Source: Bacillota bacterium (lineage in GTDB: Bacteria > Bacillota > Clostridia > Ch29). Taken from it: 64,000 nt of DNA. Below, in pieces: positions 362 to 9,172 of this stretch. The notes under the pieces are model-generated. The model was not told where the DNA came from, ran no database searches, and worked only from the letters and a program-made list of their open reading frames with translations. Where the stretch lies: positions 9,953-73,952 of the forward strand of contig JAQUCT010000001.1 of assembly GCA_028686075.1 (NCBI GenBank), read 5' to 3'. How positions within the stretch are numbered: position 1 is the first letter of the stretch; each line of letters opens with the position of its first letter. Position numbers and translations under genes: made by a program.

Positions 362-595
362 TCATTCGTCGGATAAGCGTTTAATCAAAGCGTACAAGGC
401 TTTGGCGGAATTGAAGTTCTCCGGCACTATTTCCTCCGCCGGTATGTTTACATCATACTCGCTGCTTATCTCAGCTATTATGGTAATTATATCGAAGGAA
501 TCCAGTACGTTGTCATCTATCAGGGTGTCACAGTTTTCAAAGTCCACTTCGGGATGCAGTTCCTTCAGTATTTCCAGCAGGGTTTCCATGTTCAT
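362..595 (-). CDS. dltC: D-alanyl carrier protein (acyl-carrier-like, DltC-type)
   Basis: 77 aa with carrier-protein fold and phosphopantetheine-attachment motif (LDSFD). RBS AAGGAGA is upstream of ATG at 595. The start overlaps the upstream adenylase stop as ATGA (translational coupling). Confidence 0.8.
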   Translation of the reverse strand: MNMETLLEILKELHPEVDFENCDTLIDDNVLDSFDIITIIAEISSEYDVNIPAEEIVPENFNSAKALYALIKRLSDE

Positions 596-2115
596 TTCTC
601 CTTCTTTTTGGCATTTATTTGTTCCTTCAAAGATTTACGGTCAATCTTGCCGTTGGTGGTTAATGGCATAACCTCCAGTACCTCAATTCTGTTTGGCAGC
701 ATATACCTGGGTAGCCTCTCCCTTAAGGTGGCGGCCACTTCCTTTTCGCTTGCCTCGCCCACAAAAAAGAGTACAATCTTTTTGCCTTCCTCGTCGTAAA
801 CGCAGCACGCGCTCTTAATGCCCTCTATCATGTTAACATTAACTTCAATCTCCCCCAGCTCCACGCGGTGACCCATATGCTTTATCTGGTGGTCCTTGCG
901 GGAGACAAATACCAGTTCTCCCCTGTCATTGTACCTGCCAAGGTCTCCGGTCCTGTAAATGTTCTCCGGGTAGGCATTGTTTAAGGGGTTTTGTACAAAA
1001 ACTTCGTACGTCTTGTCAAAGGCCTTGTAATAGCCCAGCGTAAGGGACGTACCCCTTACACAGATCTCTCCTAATTCGCCCCGGGCCGGGACCCTGTTGT
1101 TTTGGTCCAGAAGTATTATTTCGGTATTCTTAAAGGGCCTTCCTATAGGCAGCACCTCACCCTCCTCAAAGGGGCGGTCCACCTTAAAATAACAGCACAT
1201 TCCCGTTGCTTCGGTTGGCCCGTACAAATTTATAAACTGTGCATCCGGCAGTGCCCTTCGCCAGAGGTTGAACTGTTTTATCGGGAACACTTCGCTGCCA
1301 AAGGCTATGGTGCGTAAGCACTCCGGCTTTGTTTTGTCAAGGGTCCCCAAAGCGGATATCATGGTAAGGGCGGGCACCACCCAGCACACCGTATTTATTT
1401 GGTACCGGTTCAAAAACTCCACCAGCTTAACCGGGAACATGAAAAGGTTTTTGGGAATTATGTATGTCGTTGCTCCCGCCTTTATCGTCGAATACAGTTC
1501 TTTAAGGCTTGCATCAAAACAAAAGGGAGTCTGGTTACCAAATACGGTATTTTGGTCAACGCCTAGGACCTCCGACAGACTCTCTATGTAATCAATAACC
1601 GAACGGTGGCATGCCACCACGCCCTTAGGTATCCCAGTAGACCCGGATGTGTATATTACGTATATGGGGTCGGTGTCTATGGCAGTTTCCCGGATACGGC
1701 CAAGGGCATCCTCATCGATGCTTGTTACGACCATTTCGTCGTAAATATAAACCTCACCACCAAAATGGAAGGTATCCATAACTTTTTTTGACGCCTGGTC
1801 ACAGATAATCGCTCTGGGGTTTAGATTATTCAGTATAAGCTGTATACGGAAACGGGGCATCTCCTCTTCGATGGGCACGTAAAAGTCCCCCCCGTACACC
1901 ACTCCAAAAAACGCCGCCACAGCCTCGGGGCACTTGTTCATGAACACCACCACCGGCTGTTTGTATACACCCTTTTTGCTCAAAAAAGTGCCAATCGCCC
2001 TTGCCTGATTATAAACCTCTCTGAAGGTTATACCCGTGCTTTCGTTAGCGTAGGCAATTTTATCGGGAAACTCTTGAACCGTCCGTTCCAGGTATTCCAA
2101 TACGTTGTACTGCAT
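592..2115 (-). CDS. dltA: D-alanine--D-alanyl carrier protein ligase (AMP-binding adenylation enzyme, DltA-like)
   Basis: AMP-binding core motif YTSGSTGIPKGV plus TGD and K motifs; about 507 aa from ATG at 2115 (MQYNVLEYLERT...) preceded by GGAGG. The ORF-track N-terminal extension to 2292 lacks an RBS and is probably not translated. Confidence 0.85.
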   Translation of the reverse strand: MQYNVLEYLERTVQEFPDKIAYANESTGITFREVYNQARAIGTFLSKKGVYKQPVVVFMNKCPEAVAAFFGVVYGGDFYVPIEEEMPRFRIQLILNNLNPRAIICDQASKKVMDTFHFGGEVYIYDEMVVTSIDEDALGRIRETAIDTDPIYVIYTSGSTGIPKGVVACHRSVIDYIESLSEVLGVDQNTVFGNQTPFCFDASLKELYSTIKAGATTYIIPKNLFMFPVKLVEFLNRYQINTVCWVVPALTMISALGTLDKTKPECLRTIAFGSEVFPIKQFNLWRRALPDAQFINLYGPTEATGMCCYFKVDRPFEEGEVLPIGRPFKNTEIILLDQNNRVPARGELGEICVRGTSLTLGYYKAFDKTYEVFVQNPLNNAYPENIYRTGDLGRYNDRGELVFVSRKDHQIKHMGHRVELGEIEVNVNMIEGIKSACCVYDEEGKKIVLFFVGEASEKEVAATLRERLPRYMLPNRIEVLEVMPLTTNGKIDRKSLKEQINAKKKEK

Positions 2116-2206
2116 AGCTACCTCCTTGCTCCAGGGTTTATGGTACTGCGCGGGTACGGCCCATGCCGTCCGGCTTATCACGGCTTGCTTGTATTGCCTG
2201 GCATCC

Positions 2207-3451
2207 CTACTCGGTTGGCGTTGCCGGGTATTTTGTCCTGTCCCACACATGACTGTTGTTATGTTTTTCGGAGTATTTCTCCAGCTCAACATCGGTTAGC
2301 ATGAAGAAATCGCCGCCGCCCCTTCTGGGGGTTGTATCAAAATGGTACCATCCGTCGCCTAAGTTTACCAGGTTCCAGTAATGGCCTCCCCCGGTCTTTG
2401 CAATGCGCTGGTTTTCAATATCTGCCCTTGTAAGCAGTGCCTGGGCCGTTGAATAGTATATAAAGCAGTCTCCCCTCCGGTTCTTAATGCCCTGGTAAGC
2501 TGCGCTCACCCAGTCGCCCATGTCCGGATAGTTAACATAGCCTATCTGGTGTTTGGTCCAGTTGTATATCGCCCTGGCCTTTTCGAGTTGGGTCATGTCT
2601 TCGGATATTATGTCTTTAAGAACCTCATCCAGAAGTGGGTTCAATTCTTCTTTGTCCACGTAATCCTCTGTCTTTTGCGCCACCGTGAACGTAACGGTTT
2701 TGACCGTCGTGTTTCCGGACACATCCGCAGCGGTGTATATGACAGGATAGGAACCTTCTTTTTTTAGGTTTACGGCACTGCTGATAATGTCGAGCTTTAC
2801 ATGCTCGTCCATGTTGTCGGTAACCGAAACGTCCCGCCTGTAGGAAACCCTGTCGCCTATGTAAACGGTCTGGTCATGGGCACCTATTATCCTGGGCGGT
2901 TCATTATCCTCCAGAACCGTGAGCAGAGCATTTTGTTCGGTAATATTGCCGCCTTGGTCCTCCAAAAGCACCGCTATCTCCTGGATGCCTATCCTTTTAA
3001 AATCCGGCTCATTGGCAAAGGATACCGAGACCTCCGTTGAGTCAACAATATCGGTTACAAAGTCCCCGGCCTTGAGAACCCTTCCGGAGGGAACTGTCCT
3101 GTCTACGGGTCGGGCCAAAGGTGCGATGGTATCCGTAATCTCCAGTGTGGATTTATAGGTTCTGCCACCTACCCGCACTTCAATATTATAAACCCCGGGA
3201 ACATTCATATCAACCGTATTCGGGTCGGTAACGAAGTCGCCGGTAATATTTTCATCCCTAATAAACCGGGAAACGTCTGGTATGGGCTCTCCCGCCTCTA
3301 TTGTAACAGTATCATGCAATTTGTTAAGGGAAACCATCCCTGCCAAAACCCCTACCGCCACAAAGACAGCAAACAGTATCATAAGGTGTGCTAATTTAAC
3401 CCCATCCGCCCTTTCCTGCATACGGATTGCGCCCCCTTTTTCAAACCCCAT
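2207..3451 (-). CDS. Membrane-anchored transglutaminase-like cysteine protease domain protein with Ig-like repeats
   Basis: N-terminal TM helix (LMILFAVFVAVGVLAGMV), repeated beta-rich segments, and a C-terminal transglutaminase-like core (GDCF ... H ... D). Alternative start at 3421 (MQERADG). Confidence 0.65.
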   Translation of the reverse strand: MGFEKGGAIRMQERADGVKLAHLMILFAVFVAVGVLAGMVSLNKLHDTVTIEAGEPIPDVSRFIRDENITGDFVTDPNTVDMNVPGVYNIEVRVGGRTYKSTLEITDTIAPLARPVDRTVPSGRVLKAGDFVTDIVDSTEVSVSFANEPDFKRIGIQEIAVLLEDQGGNITEQNALLTVLEDNEPPRIIGAHDQTVYIGDRVSYRRDVSVTDNMDEHVKLDIISSAVNLKKEGSYPVIYTAADVSGNTTVKTVTFTVAQKTEDYVDKEELNPLLDEVLKDIISEDMTQLEKARAIYNWTKHQIGYVNYPDMGDWVSAAYQGIKNRRGDCFIYYSTAQALLTRADIENQRIAKTGGGHYWNLVNLGDGWYHFDTTPRRGGGDFFMLTDVELEKYSEKHNNSHVWDRTKYPATPTE

Positions 3452-3750
3452 GGTCGAAAAATAAGCTGCATGTCTTTGCAGCGTTTTAGACCTTTTTATG
3501 GAAACATTATTTATTACATATTAATACCAATAATAATTAATGTCAAGAGGTGCTTAGTCTGACAATACAATTAACGAATAGAACCATGAAACTCTGGCTG
3601 AAAAGGCTTTTGCATATCTTTTAATTTTTATGCAAAAATGGTGGAGTAAATAGGATAAAATAATTTACATCATAACAACTTATAGTAAAAAGGTGTTTTT
3701 ATACAGGTATCATTAATGCATTTGTTAGGCAAGACGACTTGCTGTACAGC

Positions 3751-4998
3751 TTACTTGTCCATATTCTTTGCGACATACAGCAATCGGTATGGGGGTGTTC
3801 CAGAAACCTTAATAGCACTTGTTCTGCTTGTCTCCCATACATCCCGTATCTTAAATGCATTTAACACATGATAGCCTAAACTGCTGAGTCTCTTTGTGAA
3901 TAAACCGGGATTAAAATATTCGATTGATTTGCTGGATACGTTAGGATGGATCTCTCTCAATGCATTTACATAAGTCTGGTTAGGCATGATTATTACTATC
4001 CCGTGGACACGGGCATTACTATTTAAATATGGTTTAATAAGTTCGGGTAAAAACGAATCCTCTGTTTCATTATGCTCGTTTGAATCTATGTAATCAACCC
4101 ATAAATCAATACTTTTTTTCTTGATAGGGTATTTGTCAGGCTTACACACAAGGAAAAGTGCTTTATGATTAAGGCCCTTTTTTTCGATTTGGGATTTATA
4201 AAACCTAATGACCTCCGGATATCTTTCCGCAATAATAAAATGGTTGTCCTCGTTAAAATATTCTATGTTTTTTAACAAGAAAAACCAGCGCTTAATATTA
4301 GTCTCAAGTATTACTTTATTATGATATTCTTTCTCGGACAGAAGATTTGATAATAGCTGTTTTTCATCTTGTTTCAATACGGTTATCGTCTTTGCATCAT
4401 ATTCTTCAAGAAGCGTATTAGATATATCGAATAATGTTGTATCGTAAATATGGGAAACCGGATCCACAAAAAGAATACCGTCTTGTATCTCAAGCCTATT
4501 CCCACAATTACATAATAATTCACCTGAAATAATCTCTCCGTTTTTAATTGTAGCACCTTTTATAACAAAATCACATTCACAGACAGGACAATTTAAAAGC
4601 TTCAAAAAAGTCAGGGGAATACCAGAAATATCTGTTGGATTACTACTAATATGCTTTGTTTCCAATATTATTTTCTTCAATCGGTCTATTGCTGTATCTA
4701 TACTGTTGCGCTGGGATACAAGGCTATTATATTTATTGCTCAGTAGTTTTACTACCTTTTTCGTTTCTCGCGGCATATTGCTGTACGAAACCCTTTCCAC
4801 TGATAAAATATCATGAATTTCCTTCAGACTAAAATACATATCTTTATAGCTTAATATCAATTTAAGCTCCTCAACATCTTTATCCGTAAAGTGATGGTGA
4901 TAGTTTTTTCGTTCAGGAACTAGAAGTCCTATCTCTATATAGTACCGAATAGTTGCAACAGAAAGACCCAGCAATTTTGAAACTTCACCTATTTTCAC
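3751..4998 (-). CDS. MerR-family HTH transcriptional regulator fused to a Cys4 zinc ribbon and an uncharacterised C-terminal domain
   Basis: N-terminal MerR HTH (KIGEVSKLLGLSVATIRYYIEIGLL), a coiled-coil segment, then CPVCEC...CNCGN zinc ribbon and about 250 aa of unknown domain. Probable start is GTG at 4998 (MKIGEV..., RBS GGTGA); the ORF track extends to 5019. The gene is very AT-rich. Confidence 0.6.
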   Translation of the reverse strand: MKIGEVSKLLGLSVATIRYYIEIGLLVPERKNYHHHFTDKDVEELKLILSYKDMYFSLKEIHDILSVERVSYSNMPRETKKVVKLLSNKYNSLVSQRNSIDTAIDRLKKIILETKHISSNPTDISGIPLTFLKLLNCPVCECDFVIKGATIKNGEIISGELLCNCGNRLEIQDGILFVDPVSHIYDTTLFDISNTLLEEYDAKTITVLKQDEKQLLSNLLSEKEYHNKVILETNIKRWFFLLKNIEYFNEDNHFIIAERYPEVIRFYKSQIEKKGLNHKALFLVCKPDKYPIKKKSIDLWVDYIDSNEHNETEDSFLPELIKPYLNSNARVHGIVIIMPNQTYVNALREIHPNVSSKSIEYFNPGLFTKRLSSLGYHVLNAFKIRDVWETSRTSAIKVSGTPPYRLLYVAKNMDK

Positions 4999-5393
4999 TA
5001 TATACTTCACCCCTTGCACAATTAATGTACGCTCTTGCCAACTTAGAGAGTTTCATAATAAATAAATATAGCCTGGGGTTAACATCTCAACCTTTTATGA
5101 TACCCTCTCACGCTTTCGCTTGCTGCATTCGCAACTCGCGATATGTATTATTATATCATAAAAATGAGCTCAATCCCAGCATTTATAAGGGTTTTGCCCC
5201 TGTTCAGCAAGCCCCTGCTTATAATACAAAACATTTCATGAAAAAGTAAAGTTAACTTGAGTTAAGTGGTAAGGATACCAATTTTACAGTATTGATCTCA
5301 AGCTGAGTTGTAAGTATATAATTCTAAGTAGGAGTAGTAGCAATTATCAATGTATAAGGTCAAAAATTATATTATGAGAGGAGACTAAGAATT

Positions 5394-6818
5394 ATGGGAA
5401 CTTTCTCGTCCGAGGCACTTTTGTTGATAATGTTAAGTACAGTTGTTGTTATCACAATCGGTGGTTTCATTGCAGTTTACTTTAAAAAAAAGACTGTGTC
5501 AAGTGAAGATTGGGCTATTGGTGGGAGAAAACTTCCGCCTTATGTAATCGTTTTTACACAGTTTGCAACTTTGGTTGGCGGAGGCGTACTCGTAGGTCAT
5601 GTTGGAATTGGGTATAATTTTGGACTTGCACCTATTATGTACGGTATATGTGGAGCTGCCGGGTGTTTTTTTATGGCGATCATAGCAAAATGGCTAAGGG
5701 AAAATGAATTTACTACTATTCCTGATATTTTGAAAAAGATTTATGGAGAAGATAACTTTTTATTGGTTTTTGCAGCTTTAATGGCAATGGTGGTTCCTTT
5801 TGGATGGATAGCCTCACAAATAACAGCATTTGGTAAATTGTATTCTTCAATAACCGGAATTGGTATGAATATTATTATTGTTGCTGTGGCATTAATATGT
5901 GTGTTGTTTACATTACCGTCAGGCTTTAACTCAGTTGCCTGGTCAGATTTTGTGTTTGGAGTTGTAATGTTAGGATTATGCGGCATAACAGCTTTCCAAG
6001 CAGTCCATATGGGAGGGGGATGGACTGATATAGTCAGTAACATACAGGACAAAACAATTATATCCTTTCCCGAAGGCCTTTTGTCTGCAGGCTTAACTAC
6101 AACGCTCCTCTGGTTTATTGCAGCAACTCCCGGAATGATGACAAACCAAATGACCCTGCAAAGAGTTTGTGCTGCAGACACAGTCAAAAATGCCCGAAGA
6201 ACATTAATAATCAGCGGAATTCTCATTGCCGCACTGGAAATTTGGGTTGTAGTTATGGGTGTATCTATCCGATCGTTAAATCCTGACTTGACAGGAGAGA
6301 TGGCGATGGGATGGTTTTTAACAACAATCCCTAAATGGACAGTCGCATTATTTGCAGGGTTTATTTCCACAACAATCATTACTACAGCCGATAGTGCTTT
6401 ACAGTCTGTTGCAGTGAATTTCACTCAAGATATCTATAAAAAACACATTAATGTGGGGGCATCAGACAAAAAATTGATGAGCGTTTCTCGAAAGGCAACG
6501 GTTATTGTAGCCATCTTGGCAATAATGTTGGCTATCGCCTTCCCAAGAGTGATGGACTTAATAATTGCCTCATATGCATATTCTGCGTCCGCATTACTTG
6601 TTCCCATTTATGCCGGCTATGCTTACAGCAAAAGAAGAACTCTTACGACAAAGGTGGGGAAGAACAGTATGATCGCGGGCCTTGTTGGATGTTTTATTGC
6701 TCAGATGCTGCACACTAGAATACCATATGCTATATATGGAATCCTAGTATCATATGTTGTTATGATAATAACAATAAAAGCTAATGAAAGTAAAAAACTC
6801 AGTACTGGAGGAAAATAA
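5394..6818 (+). CDS. Sodium:solute symporter (SSS family, PutP/PanF-like) transporter
   Basis: 474 aa, about 13 predicted TM helices, with the conserved SSS N-terminal region (DWAIGGRKLPPYV..., GGGVLVG). RBS GAGGAGA precedes ATG 5394. Confidence 0.8.
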   Translation: MGTFSSEALLLIMLSTVVVITIGGFIAVYFKKKTVSSEDWAIGGRKLPPYVIVFTQFATLVGGGVLVGHVGIGYNFGLAPIMYGICGAAGCFFMAIIAKWLRENEFTTIPDILKKIYGEDNFLLVFAALMAMVVPFGWIASQITAFGKLYSSITGIGMNIIIVAVALICVLFTLPSGFNSVAWSDFVFGVVMLGLCGITAFQAVHMGGGWTDIVSNIQDKTIISFPEGLLSAGLTTTLLWFIAATPGMMTNQMTLQRVCAADTVKNARRTLIISGILIAALEIWVVVMGVSIRSLNPDLTGEMAMGWFLTTIPKWTVALFAGFISTTIITTADSALQSVAVNFTQDIYKKHINVGASDKKLMSVSRKATVIVAILAIMLAIAFPRVMDLIIASYAYSASALLVPIYAGYAYSKRRTLTTKVGKNSMIAGLVGCFIAQMLHTRIPYAIYGILVSYVVMIITIKANESKKLSTGGK

Positions 6819-6819
6819 A

Positions 6820-7827
6820 ATGAAGACCATTCTATTGAGTGAAAAAGATATTAAAAAACTAATTACCATGCGAGAGGCTATTGATATTACCAACAAAACC
6901 TTTGCTGATTTGGGGAAAGGTAATACTCTCAACCCGACTAAGCTTAATCTTAATTTAGGTGACAGTGAACCTACTAAACTTCCCTATAAAGCGTCATTAA
7001 ACGCGATGCCTGCTTATATTGGATGGCAGGATATTGCAGGGATGAAATGGGCAGGGGGTTTCGGCAAAGGAAGGAAAGAAATTAATATGCCGTTTATCAA
7101 TGCCCTTATTTTGCTTGTCGAACCTAACTATGGTGACTTTCTTGCAGTAATGGACGGTACTTGGATAACTAAAGTGCGTACCGGAGCCCAGTCAGCGGCA
7201 ATACTCAGGTATTTATTAAAAGACAAGAAAAAAGCAACCTTTGGTATGTACGGTGCTGGGGTACAAGCCCGTACTCAGACCATGGCACTTACAAGTGAGT
7301 TCTATGTTGAAAAGCTGATTGTCTATGATCCAGTTTTAGAAGCAGCAAATAAGTTTAAGGAAGATATGAATAGTTATGTGCAAGGAGAGATAGTGATTGT
7401 GAATGAACCCAAAGATGTAGTGGAAAGTGATGCTTTCATATCCATAACTCCGGCTGACGATGCTTTTATTAAAGGAGAATGGTTATACAAGGGAAGTATT
7501 TATCTTGCCATGGGTTCGTACCAAGAATGTGATGATGTATGTATTTTAGATTCCGACATTATTATAGTTGACCACATCGGCCAGTGTCTGCATCGGGGGA
7601 ATCTCAAGAAACTCGCTGATCAAGGCAAGATTACAGAAAAAGACATATACTGCACGATCGGCGAACTTGCTGCAGGTTTAAAATCTGTCCAAAACTTAAA
7701 TGACAAAAAAACATTAATAGTCCCAATCGGTATGGGATGCCTAGATGTTGCAGTTGCGGCAGTTGCATATAGAAAAGCGTTGTCTTTAGGCGTGGGCAAT
7801 ACTTTTATGTTTGACCAAGTTGACTAG
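6820..7827 (+). CDS. Ornithine cyclodeaminase / mu-crystallin family NAD(P)-dependent enzyme
   Basis: OCD family signatures (TKVRTGA, Rossmann GMYGAGVQA); about 335 aa from ATG 6820 preceded by GGAGG. The ORF-track start at 6784 overlaps the transporter stop and is unlikely. Confidence 0.8.
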   Translation: MKTILLSEKDIKKLITMREAIDITNKTFADLGKGNTLNPTKLNLNLGDSEPTKLPYKASLNAMPAYIGWQDIAGMKWAGGFGKGRKEINMPFINALILLVEPNYGDFLAVMDGTWITKVRTGAQSAAILRYLLKDKKKATFGMYGAGVQARTQTMALTSEFYVEKLIVYDPVLEAANKFKEDMNSYVQGEIVIVNEPKDVVESDAFISITPADDAFIKGEWLYKGSIYLAMGSYQECDDVCILDSDIIIVDHIGQCLHRGNLKKLADQGKITEKDIYCTIGELAAGLKSVQNLNDKKTLIVPIGMGCLDVAVAAVAYRKALSLGVGNTFMFDQVD

Positions 7828-8098
7828 GAATAAGTTTTTTAATAGTCAGTTAGCCTTGTTAAGCTATGAAGGGTAATGACAAGCCCAGTTGCGGTTATTT
7901 AGAAATAAAGACCATACAGTAATGTGCTTTAAAGGGAGGCCCTAAGACGGAGAAAGATTTTACGCATTCGCTATAGTTGCGATGATTAAACTAGATGCGC
8001 AAAGTACTCAGAATCATTAAATCTTATATAAGGGCCATCCCTTTAAATGCACTGGCTTATGCCTTGTATGAATTCTAAAGGGAGTGGAGTGAATCTTT

Positions 8099-9172
8099 GT
8101 GGGTAAAATGATTTCAATTATTGGAGCAGGTAACGGCGGTCAAGCTTTTGCCGGATATTTGTCTTTGCAAGACTGGAAGGTTAAACTATATGACATATCA
8201 CAAGAAACAGTAGATATATTAAATAAAAAAGGCGGAATTCATATCGAAGGAAGTGCTAATGTAGAAGGTTTTGGAGAAATACTGCTTGCCAGCACCGATA
8301 TTGGTGAAGTAATTAACGGGACAAAAATAATTTTAGTTACTTTACCTTCTATATATCACAAAGAAATTGCCAGAAAAATAGCTCCATATCTAGTTGATGG
8401 GCAATTTATCATGCTCAATCCTTGTACTGCCCTCGGTGCCGTTGAATTTCGCAAAGAATTGAATGATTGTACTTGCACTGCTGATATACTTCTTGGGTGT
8501 ACATCTACTCTGTTGTTTGCCTGTCGTGCAATAGAAATAGGCCGTGTTATAGTTGCCGGGCAGAAAGCAAGCATTACTGCATCAACCTATCCTTCCTGCA
8601 ATAATGCTATTGCAGCTAAAATATTCAAAGATATAATTCCTCAGGCACAGTTTTGTGGTGACATAATACAAATTGGCCTTGATAATATTGGGGCATTGGT
8701 ACACCCCGGCCCAACCATTCTAAACACGGGCAGAATCGAATCGGGAACCGAGTTTGAATATTATTTGGATATTACTCCAACTCAAGGCTTGCTGGTTGAC
8801 AGATTGGATGAAGAACGAATGGCGATTGCCCGGGCATTTGGATTGACTGTAAAATCTTTGGTGGATATATATGAGGCATTATATCAAATTAAAGGAAAAA
8901 ATGTTTATGAAGTACTTACCGGCTGTGATGCATATAATGGTATCAAAGGGCCCACAACACTTCGTACACGTTATCTTCTGGAAGATGTGCCTTATGGTCT
9001 TTGCGCGTTTCAGACTTTGGGAATTATTGCAGGTGTACCAACTCCATGCATTGATGCATTAATTACACTGGCGAGAAAAATAATACCTGAAATGGAGGAA
9101 GGTAGAACCCCAGAAAATCTTGGACTGGAAGGCGTATCAAAAGAAGAGTTCATTAAATCATGCCGTTCCTAA
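8099..9172 (+). CDS. Opine dehydrogenase (NAD/NADP octopine/nopaline dehydrogenase family; N-(1-D-carboxyethyl)-L-norvaline dehydrogenase homologue)
   Basis: Collinear similarity to Arthrobacter opine dehydrogenase over the whole length (IIGAGNGGQAFAGYL, LNPCTALGAVEFRK, HPGPTILNTGRIESGTEFEYYLDITP, DEERMAIARAFGL, GIKGPTTLRTRYLLEDVPYGL, GVPTPCIDALI). GTG start at 8099 with GGAGTGGAG RBS; an alternative ATG lies at 8108. Confidence 0.85.
   Translation: MGKMISIIGAGNGGQAFAGYLSLQDWKVKLYDISQETVDILNKKGGIHIEGSANVEGFGEILLASTDIGEVINGTKIILVTLPSIYHKEIARKIAPYLVDGQFIMLNPCTALGAVEFRKELNDCTCTADILLGCTSTLLFACRAIEIGRVIVAGQKASITASTYPSCNNAIAAKIFKDIIPQAQFCGDIIQIGLDNIGALVHPGPTILNTGRIESGTEFEYYLDITPTQGLLVDRLDEERMAIARAFGLTVKSLVDIYEALYQIKGKNVYEVLTGCDAYNGIKGPTTLRTRYLLEDVPYGLCAFQTLGIIAGVPTPCIDALITLARKIIPEMEEGRTPENLGLEGVSKEEFIKSCRS

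Follow-up and report, generated by a model that had tools for sequence, protein, structure and literature searches.

A MerR-Type Regulator with a Zinc Ribbon and a Putative Pseudo-Methyltransferase Effector Domain, Divergent from Symporter and OCD-Family Genes in a Bacillota Genome

Regulators of the MerR family are the textbook case of transcriptional activation by promoter distortion, and their known sensors comprise short metal or redox loops, GyrI-like and TipAS domains, and also B12-binding domains. In this study, we analyzed a MerR-type regulator gene with another kind of C-terminal module, which is located at 3751..4998 on the minus strand of a 64,000-nucleotide stretch of DNA, hereafter the window, from a Bacillota bacterium (assembly GCA_028686075.1, contig JAQUCT010000001.1, positions 9,953 to 73,952). 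With a probability of about 0.68, the protein is a one-component MerR activator with a pseudo-methyltransferase effector domain, which turns on the divergent genes for a sodium:solute symporter (SSF) and an OCD-family enzyme via a promoter with a 19-bp spacer.

BmrR, Mta and TipAL resemble the window protein in the sequence of the helix-turn-helix (HTH), in the large effector module at the C-terminus and in the 19-bp spacer of the (here candidate) target promoter; the long dimerisation helix of this group may have its counterpart in a predicted helix of the window protein. Activation by DNA distortion at such promoters has been described for BmrR-type regulators (PMC7722741, PMC8113463), and a spacer of 19-20 bp is the signature of MerR-activated promoters, which are activated by distortion of the DNA (PMC8113463, PMC7722741, PMC9909328). 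The effector module is GyrI-like in BmrR and TipAS in TipAL, whereas here it consists of a Trm112-like zinc ribbon and a methyltransferase fold. Also, the target of BmrR-type regulators is a drug efflux pump, whereas the presumed target here is an uptake transporter together with a catabolic-type enzyme. The combination of ribbon and fold resembles a fused Trm112-methyltransferase pair, and in RlmA(I) a zinc-binding domain is placed ahead of the methyltransferase domain. Both Trm112-methyltransferase holoenzymes and enzymes of the RlmA(I) type actively methylate RNA or protein, keep their S-adenosylmethionine (SAM) motifs intact and lack a DNA-binding domain, whereas here a pair of this kind is fused behind a MerR HTH and its SAM motifs are lost. 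The nearest conceptual precedent is SahR, likewise a bacterial one-component regulator with a methyltransferase-type sensor. Its ArsR-type HTH is joined to a SAM-dependent methyltransferase domain, and the protein is described as responsive to S-adenosylhomocysteine (SAH) (bioRxiv 10.1101/2022.10.17.512643), and its regulon is the methionine/SAM cycle (PMC4239095). In contrast to the window protein, SahR is of the ArsR and not the MerR type, has no zinc ribbon and is SAH-responsive, whereas the SAM/SAH motifs here are degenerate and the presumed regulon consists of SSF and OCD genes.

A 2021 review of MerR ligand-binding domains contains no mention of methyltransferases, and literature searches for a MerR regulator with a methyltransferase-like domain gave nothing relevant and no study of such proteins. 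The sequences of this subfamily with a putative pseudo-methyltransferase effector are already in public databases as "MerR family transcriptional regulator", and no new principle of regulation follows from the finding. If true, a methyltransferase-derived sensor with a mostly dead cofactor site would add a new, enzyme-derived class of effector domain to the MerR family and would exemplify the reuse of an enzyme fold as ligand sensor. Together with its 19-bp promoter, the regulator would also be a ready reporter, offering a route to the substrate of a conserved transporter/OCD pair of uncultured gut-associated Bacillota.

Domain Architecture and Family of the Regulator

The open reading frame (ORF) of the first-pass annotation is present on the minus strand at 3751..5019, where it mechanically reaches a GTG codon and encodes 422 aa; residue numbers follow this 422-aa numbering throughout. 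The true start is most likely GTG 4998, because relatives begin with MKIGE, proteins of the same 90% cluster were called by NCBI with 415 aa ("MerR family transcriptional regulator [Bacillota bacterium]"), and a Shine-Dalgarno-like sequence AAGGGGTG is located 5′ of this codon. The resulting translation of 415 aa keeps the HTH, the loss of which through a different start codon had been named as a possible objection. The divergent arrangement with the symporter gene stands as annotated, while the length of the AT-rich spacer is corrected from 375 bp to 395 bp (34% GC) with the start at 4998.

The N-terminal part is a MerR winged HTH (residues 9-73; 4801..4995, minus strand), which was matched by the Pfam models MerR_1 (residues 9-73, E=7e-17, 61.8 bits, cutoff 21.6) and MerR (residues 9-38, E=1e-11, 44.9 bits, cutoff 28.2). 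The nearest solved structures by sequence were the Listeria MerR-like protein 3qao, TipA (2vz4), Mta (1jbg), and the CueR and BmrR DNA-binding domains. A full-length AlphaFold2 (AF2) model contains a 38-residue helix (residues 85-122; 4654..4767, minus strand), tentatively assigned as the MerR-type coiled-coil dimerisation helix with a predicted local distance difference test (pLDDT) of only 50-60. The Pfam model MerR-DNA-bind reached 21.1 bits at residues 49-116 (E=5e-4), under its cutoff of 25.4, and was matched at E≤0.01 by 53 of the 86 family proteins that were aligned for conservation, Pfam and motif counts. The full-length model was based on a 3-sequence alignment (pLDDT 68) and was too poor for a fold search; it was replaced by a model of the C-terminal part (residues 130-422, 29-sequence alignment).

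Behind this region, a Trm112-like Cys4 zinc ribbon spans residues 138-187 (4459..4608, minus strand), as identified by profile matches, Cys conservation and the C-terminal model. The motif CPVCEC-x20-CNCGN, already noted in the first-pass annotation, is exact in the translation. Among the 86 family members, C144, C147 and C170 are invariant and C172 is at least 90% conserved; C149 is not conserved, and the four ligands are therefore assigned to C144, C147, C170 and C172. The NCBIfam model Trm112_arch matched residues 139-182 (E=1e-6; 28.8 bits, whereas the equivalog cutoff is 77), the 60-aa chain 6zxw_H of the PDB was matched by the single sequence with E=6e-4 and by the family profile with 3.7e-8, and Pfam Trm112p was matched by 9 of the 86 relatives. 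The modelled ribbon forms a three-stranded sheet with a pLDDT of ~97 (residues 152-159, 162-169 and 175-179, which are residues 23-30, 33-40 and 46-50 of the model, as its numbering starts at residue 130), and 6f5z, a Trm112-methyltransferase complex, was among the structure and profile matches. The ribbon is a covalently fused internal domain of the 415-aa regulator and not, as Trm112, a separate methyltransferase activator subunit.

For the ~230 aa on the C-terminal side of the ribbon (residues ~190-420; 3760..4452, minus strand), which represent the presumed effector-binding domain, no Pfam or NCBIfam match was obtained with the window sequence alone. The C-terminal AF2 model (pLDDT 90.5, predicted template modelling score 0.90) shows the alternating beta/alpha pattern and the terminal beta hairpin of class I methyltransferases. 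This Rossmann-like seven-stranded fold of the predicted model was also found by Foldseek, where RlmA(I) aligned most columns. The family profile matched the 16S ribosomal RNA methyltransferase NpmA (1.3e-4) and the SAM methyltransferase 3dh0 (1.4e-3). A single-sequence phmmer search with the C-terminal part led to the family member P0047 (E=3e-20, query positions 7-294), and members like P0047 match Pfam methyltransferase models. Such matches among the 86 members comprised Methyltransf_25 (24 members), Methyltransf_31 (20) and Methyltransf_11 (19), and member P0098 exceeds the gathering cutoffs of Pfam methyltransferase models; the window protein and the window clade were matched by none of these models. 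The reading of the first-pass annotation as a MerR regulator whose C-terminal module is unusually large is supported, while the supposed unknown domain turns out, by profiles, AF2 and Foldseek, to be a Trm112-like ribbon fused to a class I methyltransferase fold.

The glycines of motif I and the acidic residues of motifs II and III make up the SAM site of class I methyltransferases. According to a motif census, 17 of the 86 members are canonical, 7 partial and 62 degenerate, and the 17 canonical members keep GxGxG and match Pfam methyltransferase models. Motifs I, II and III read ILELGSGxGFFLR, AVDHD and FLCCDF..PL in the canonical group, ILETHINxYFFL, IVDKFPE and YIAD in an intermediate group, and ILETNIKRWFFLLKN, IIAE.YPEV and LFxxC(K/R)P..YP(I/L) in the window clade. 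The degenerate motif I of the window protein, VILETNIKRWFFL (4276..4314, minus strand; from family alignment, census and translation), aligns with the canonical (V/I)ILELGSGxGFFL and has E-T-N-I-K-R-W in place of the E-L-G-S-G-x-G of canonical relatives. The glycine-rich loop is thus missing, the three GxGxG glycines being replaced by T, I and R (run T-N-I-K-R). At motif III, which reads C-D-F in canonical members, the window protein has Lys in place of Asp (C-K-P), and C-R-P, A-R-P or S-E-G occur in its clade. As motifs I and III are both lacking, the protein is not counted as an active class I methyltransferase. An enzyme family with an intact active site, anticipated as an argument against a regulatory role, is therefore not at hand: the fold is that of a methyltransferase, but the SAM motifs are not intact. 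SAM binding and catalysis have presumably been lost in the window protein, and since the SAM-binding signatures (motif I glycines, motif III Asp) are replaced, the domain is in all likelihood a pseudo-methyltransferase that no longer catalyses a reaction and now serves as an effector domain for a small molecule.

Residues invariant in the window clade cluster at three places, namely the motif I loop (E239, T240, N241, K243), the surroundings of beta-4 (W307, D309, D312, E318) and the helices ahead of beta-1 (E206, Y207, T211), and beta-4 with the following loop has the pattern DLW.DY.DS.EH.ETE. These positions correspond to the usual cofactor and substrate pocket regions of methyltransferases. 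Their clustering at the motif I loop, beta-4 and the helices before beta-1 suggests that the pocket is still under selection, for a different ligand. Conserved basic residues in the pocket region of the clade are K243, usually R244, and K/R292.

In an exhaustive HMMER search with residues 125-422 alone as query, the C-terminal part was matched by 343 clusters (50% identity) at E≤1e-3 and by 160 at E≤1e-10. Nearly all matching clusters have ~405-425 aa with the match at ~125-410, and MerR_1 was found in all 86 aligned members. The named members all belong to Bacillota and include Vescimonas, Oscillospiraceae, Clostridiales and Tissierellaceae. The fusion of a MerR domain, a ribbon and a large domain, which the first-pass annotation called unusual, is thus real, while its rarity is not borne out by a family of this size. 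A word-indexed search with the full protein had given only 3 relatives and the appearance of a near-orphan protein; this was discarded as an artefact, as words from the MerR HTH had saturated the candidate list.

Two members of the canonical-motif subgroup are associated with transporters. P0100 (780 aa, GxGxG intact) is fused to an MFS_1 transporter domain, and P0047 (canonical motif; loci L015-L017) is followed by an MFS transporter gene. Because of this fusion and this neighbour, the canonical subgroup may control efflux pumps, like BmrR.

Conserved Partner Genes and a Candidate 19-bp-Spacer Promoter

The regulator gene is divergent from the symporter gene (5394..6818, plus strand; Pfam SSF, E=3e-32), which is the first gene of the presumed target operon, from the gene of an OCD/mu-crystallin-family enzyme (6820..7827, plus strand; Pfam OCD_Mu_crystall, E=4e-42) and from a CENDH-like opine dehydrogenase gene (8099..9172, plus strand; Pfam Octopine_DH, E=3e-40), whose membership in the regulon is uncertain. 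The closest structures to the OCD protein were the archaeal alanine dehydrogenase 1omo and the Pyr2C reductase 6t3e, and the protein scored far under every NCBIfam equivalog cutoff.

Related loci keep the OCD gene as divergent partner. Regulator and divergent SSF and OCD genes were found in L008, an Oscillospiraceae metagenome-assembled genome (MAG) with a regulator 41% identical to that of the window, and in L010 and L018, a Clostridium sp. MAG and a metagenome contig (39%). In L009, a Clostridiales MAG (36%), the divergent genes code for OCD and an EamA transporter, and in L011, a metagenome contig (48%), for OCD. The regulator of L010 and L018 is identical to family member P0005, whose cluster includes a Vescimonas sp. 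protein. Carriers of the putative SSF/OCD pathway would include Vescimonas and a gut-derived Oscillospiraceae genome. Altogether, an orthologous OCD gene is divergent from the regulator in four well-separated lineages (L008, L009, L010/L018 and L011; regulators 36-48% identical), and SSF accompanies it in L008, L010 and L018. In the two pairs compared, the OCD proteins are 70% (L008) and 67% (L009) identical to that of the window; the SSF protein of L008 is 58% identical to its window counterpart. The neighbour in L011 is cut by the contig end, and its N-terminus of 113 aa aligns by eye with the window OCD protein.

Downstream of the regulator, each lineage examined has other genes: transglutaminase/dlt-like genes in the window, and elsewhere MatE, 2-hydroxyacid dehydrogenase, AzlD or a 347-aa protein without Pfam match. 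Also, the opine dehydrogenase gene was not found in the flanks of L008, L009, L010 and L018 and adjoins the regulator only in the window's own lineage. As downstream genes vary and the opine dehydrogenase is restricted to this lineage, the conserved unit is the regulator plus the OCD-family gene, usually with SSF. The pairing with the divergent genes is hence well founded, whereas the opine-like substrate proposed in the first-pass annotation is not specifically supported, and an opine as the specific signal was rejected on the absence of the dehydrogenase gene from the related loci. The dehydrogenase itself matched 1bg6, the N-(1-D-carboxyethyl)-L-norvaline dehydrogenase of Arthrobacter, with E=3e-73; an enzyme of this type was unexpected in a Bacillota MAG.

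For the detection of promoters, intergenic regions were scanned without bias for -35/-10 pairs with spacers of 15-21 bp. In the window, this gave a candidate MerR-type symporter promoter at 5292..5322 (plus strand), consisting of the -35 element TTGATC (5292-5297), a spacer of 19 bp and the -10 element TATAAT (5317-5322), 71 nt 5′ of the symporter ATG at 5394. The 19-20 bp promoter predicted for the divergent spacer was thus found, and equivalents are present at six other distinct loci. Counting L010 and L018 as one locus, a promoter with a 19-bp spacer was the best neighbour-facing promoter in 7 of 8 distinct loci, and it was the top or only neighbour-facing match in L008, L009, L010, L018, L011, L019 and L007. 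The -35 element is TTGACT in L008, L010/L018, L011 and L019, TTGACC in L009 and TTGACA in L007 (intermediate group); the -10 element is TATAAT in L007, L008, L009 and L010/L018 and TATACT in L011 and L019, in each case with 19 bp between them. The aligned consensus is TTGAC.T..AGT..a.T....A...TATAaT. In composition-matched shuffles, such a site occurred in 0-5 of 5000 trials (L008-L010). Thereby, the over-long spacer typical of the MerR family was found in the window and in the related loci.

Further elements were noted around these promoters. A perfect palindrome TTAACT-TG-AGTTAA (5252-5265) is located 27 bp 5′ of the -35 element of the 5292-5322 promoter; as an operator it was rejected, since the promoter does not include it and a counterpart is absent from the other loci. 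For the regulator gene itself, consensus scans gave a weak candidate promoter, TTAACC-16-TATTAT (5055..5082, minus strand). Directly 3′ of the -10 element, L010 (7870-7900) and L018 (2925-2960) carry the direct repeat CGTGTATAAA-N7-CGTGTATAAA on the SSF strand, which could be the binding site of a second regulator. L009 has a GC-rich leader of ~150 nt between the 19-bp promoter and the OCD start (7739-7890), which is much longer than in other loci.

Proposed Mechanism and Alternative Explanations

The proposed activator would consist of four parts, the MerR winged HTH, a coiled-coil helix expected to mediate dimerisation, the Trm112-like Cys4 ribbon and the class I methyltransferase-fold domain. 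A dimer would sit on TTGATC-N19-TATAAT (5292-5322), and ligand binding by the ribbon/pseudo-methyltransferase module would under-twist or kink the over-long spacer. Thereby, the -35 and -10 elements would be realigned and the promoter used by RNA polymerase, so that the genes of the SSF symporter and the OCD-family enzyme would be switched on, perhaps together with the opine dehydrogenase gene that follows. The ligand is probably an amino- or imino-acid-type compound imported by the symporter and converted by the OCD enzyme, or its product. Both the activation by DNA distortion and the nature of the ligand are inferred here. In a wider and more tentative proposal, which we rate at a little under even odds, the family would be a Bacillota MerR subfamily with a ribbon and methyltransferase sensor, in most members of which the SAM site has been rebuilt as a ligand pocket, and the window clade would be the inducer switch of an SSF/OCD pathway in mostly uncultured Bacillota. 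The basic residues K243, R244 and K/R292 in the pocket region of this clade would then suit an amino or imino acid with a carboxylate group.

Several observations weigh against the proposed activator or its assumed target. The acidic residue of motif II is retained as E266, aligned to the Asp of the canonical AVDHD, a position that is not invariant in the window clade (Ser in P0006). In the full-length model, the junction between HTH/coiled coil and sensor has a pLDDT of 38-60, and a coupling of the sensor to the DNA-binding domain is not visible. The lineage of L012 (P0008; metagenome contig, regulator 38% identical) has a divergent aminotransferase gene and not OCD, and its 19-bp candidate is weak (9/12). 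L019 and L007 support the spacing and not the target, as the former is a short contig and in the latter only small ORFs come after the promoter. The -35 element in the window fits the consensus in only 4 of 6 positions, and TTGCCC-N20-TATAAT (5194-5225) ties in score with 5292-5322. This alternative promoter is disfavoured, and 5292-5322 was preferred, because of the distance from the -10 element to the start codon, which is 168 nt for 5194-5225 and 71 nt for 5292-5322, compared with 56-151 nt in related loci. Also, an inverted-repeat search, inspection by eye and a centre-constrained dyad score gave no convincing dyad operator in the window spacer. The loci share no more than a weak AGT-N2-A(C)T core, centred at spacer position 13.5; it is imperfect in the window (AGC-TG-AGT), while L019 (AGTATACT) and L011 (ATAGT-GA-ACTAT) have clear palindromes centred at this position. 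The inverted-repeat MerR operator suggested for the window spacer in the first-pass annotation could hence not be clearly defined.

A C-terminal domain that still binds SAM or SAH or still methylates, making the protein a SAM/SAH-responsive or bifunctional enzyme-regulator like SahR, is unlikely. The class I methyltransferase fold, the retained E266 and the 17 of 86 members with Pfam methyltransferase matches, in which GxGxG, an acidic residue in motif II and Asp in motif III are preserved, are all in its favour, as is SahR with its ArsR-like HTH and SAM-dependent methyltransferase as precedent (bioRxiv 10.1101/2022.10.17.512643). In the window clade, however, the bulkier residues T, I and R stand in place of the motif I glycines and Lys in place of the motif III Asp, matches to Pfam methyltransferase models are absent, and the associated transporter and OCD enzyme are unrelated to the methionine/SAM cycle. 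The ribbon and pseudo-methyltransferase could instead form a platform for protein-protein contacts with the OCD enzyme or another partner, with control by partner sequestration, for which TnrA/GlnR and glutamine synthetase are a precedent. Trm112, which the ribbon resembles, acts by binding partner methyltransferases (6f5z complex). Here, though, the ribbon has a methyltransferase-fold domain of its own in the same chain, and both were modelled together with a predicted template modelling score of 0.90, so that a Trm112-type interface is most simply filled in cis; moreover, the clade-specific invariant residues appear to lie in pocket-forming loops and not in obvious surface patches. We regard such a platform as improbable.

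Control of the regulator's own gene or of the co-directional transglutaminase-like/dlt-like cluster, in place of the divergent symporter operon, is very unlikely. The regulator heads a same-strand gene run (3451..362), and after the gene of the canonical member P0047 comes an MFS transporter gene in the same direction; against this, the downstream genes are different in every lineage examined, a terminator-like hairpin is located between the regulator and the next gene, and the conserved 19-bp-spacer promoter faces the opposite way. For a metal or redox sensor formed by the Cys4 cluster, with the methyltransferase-like domain merely as scaffold, speak the four nearly invariant cysteines and the many MerR proteins that sense metals or oxidants through cysteines (PMC9909328). 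Yet the motif fits the structural zinc-ribbon family Trm112 and is well removed from the end of the dimerisation helix, the location of metal sites in MerR proteins, and the conserved targets are a solute transporter and an amino-acid-type enzyme and do not belong to metal or redox defence, which makes a sensor of this kind extremely unlikely.

Further Observations at the Locus

Downstream of the regulator, the region 362-3451 (minus strand) codes for a transglutaminase-core/Ig-like protein and then a dlt-like set, which runs past the window start (L001/L002). The set comprises an AMP-binding enzyme, a carrier protein of 75-77 aa, an MBOAT protein and a 362-aa protein, and other lineages do not have it next to the regulator. 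The regulator stop codon is separated from the transglutaminase-like gene by 300 bp, in which a promoter-like sequence TTGACA-17-TAATAT (3546..3518, minus strand) is followed within ~40 nt by a terminator-like hairpin with a T-run (3482..3465, minus strand). A search for riboswitches and leader RNAs at 3300-5500 gave no credible Rfam match; the element at 3465-3546 could represent a small RNA, or else a leader or attenuator. In the 272-bp gap between the OCD and opine dehydrogenase genes (7828-8098), no promoter or terminator match was found. Two sequences in this gap, TTTAAAGGGAGGCCC at ~7929 and GGGCCATCCCTTTAAA at ~8033, make up a long-range inverted repeat and may belong to a structured RNA element.

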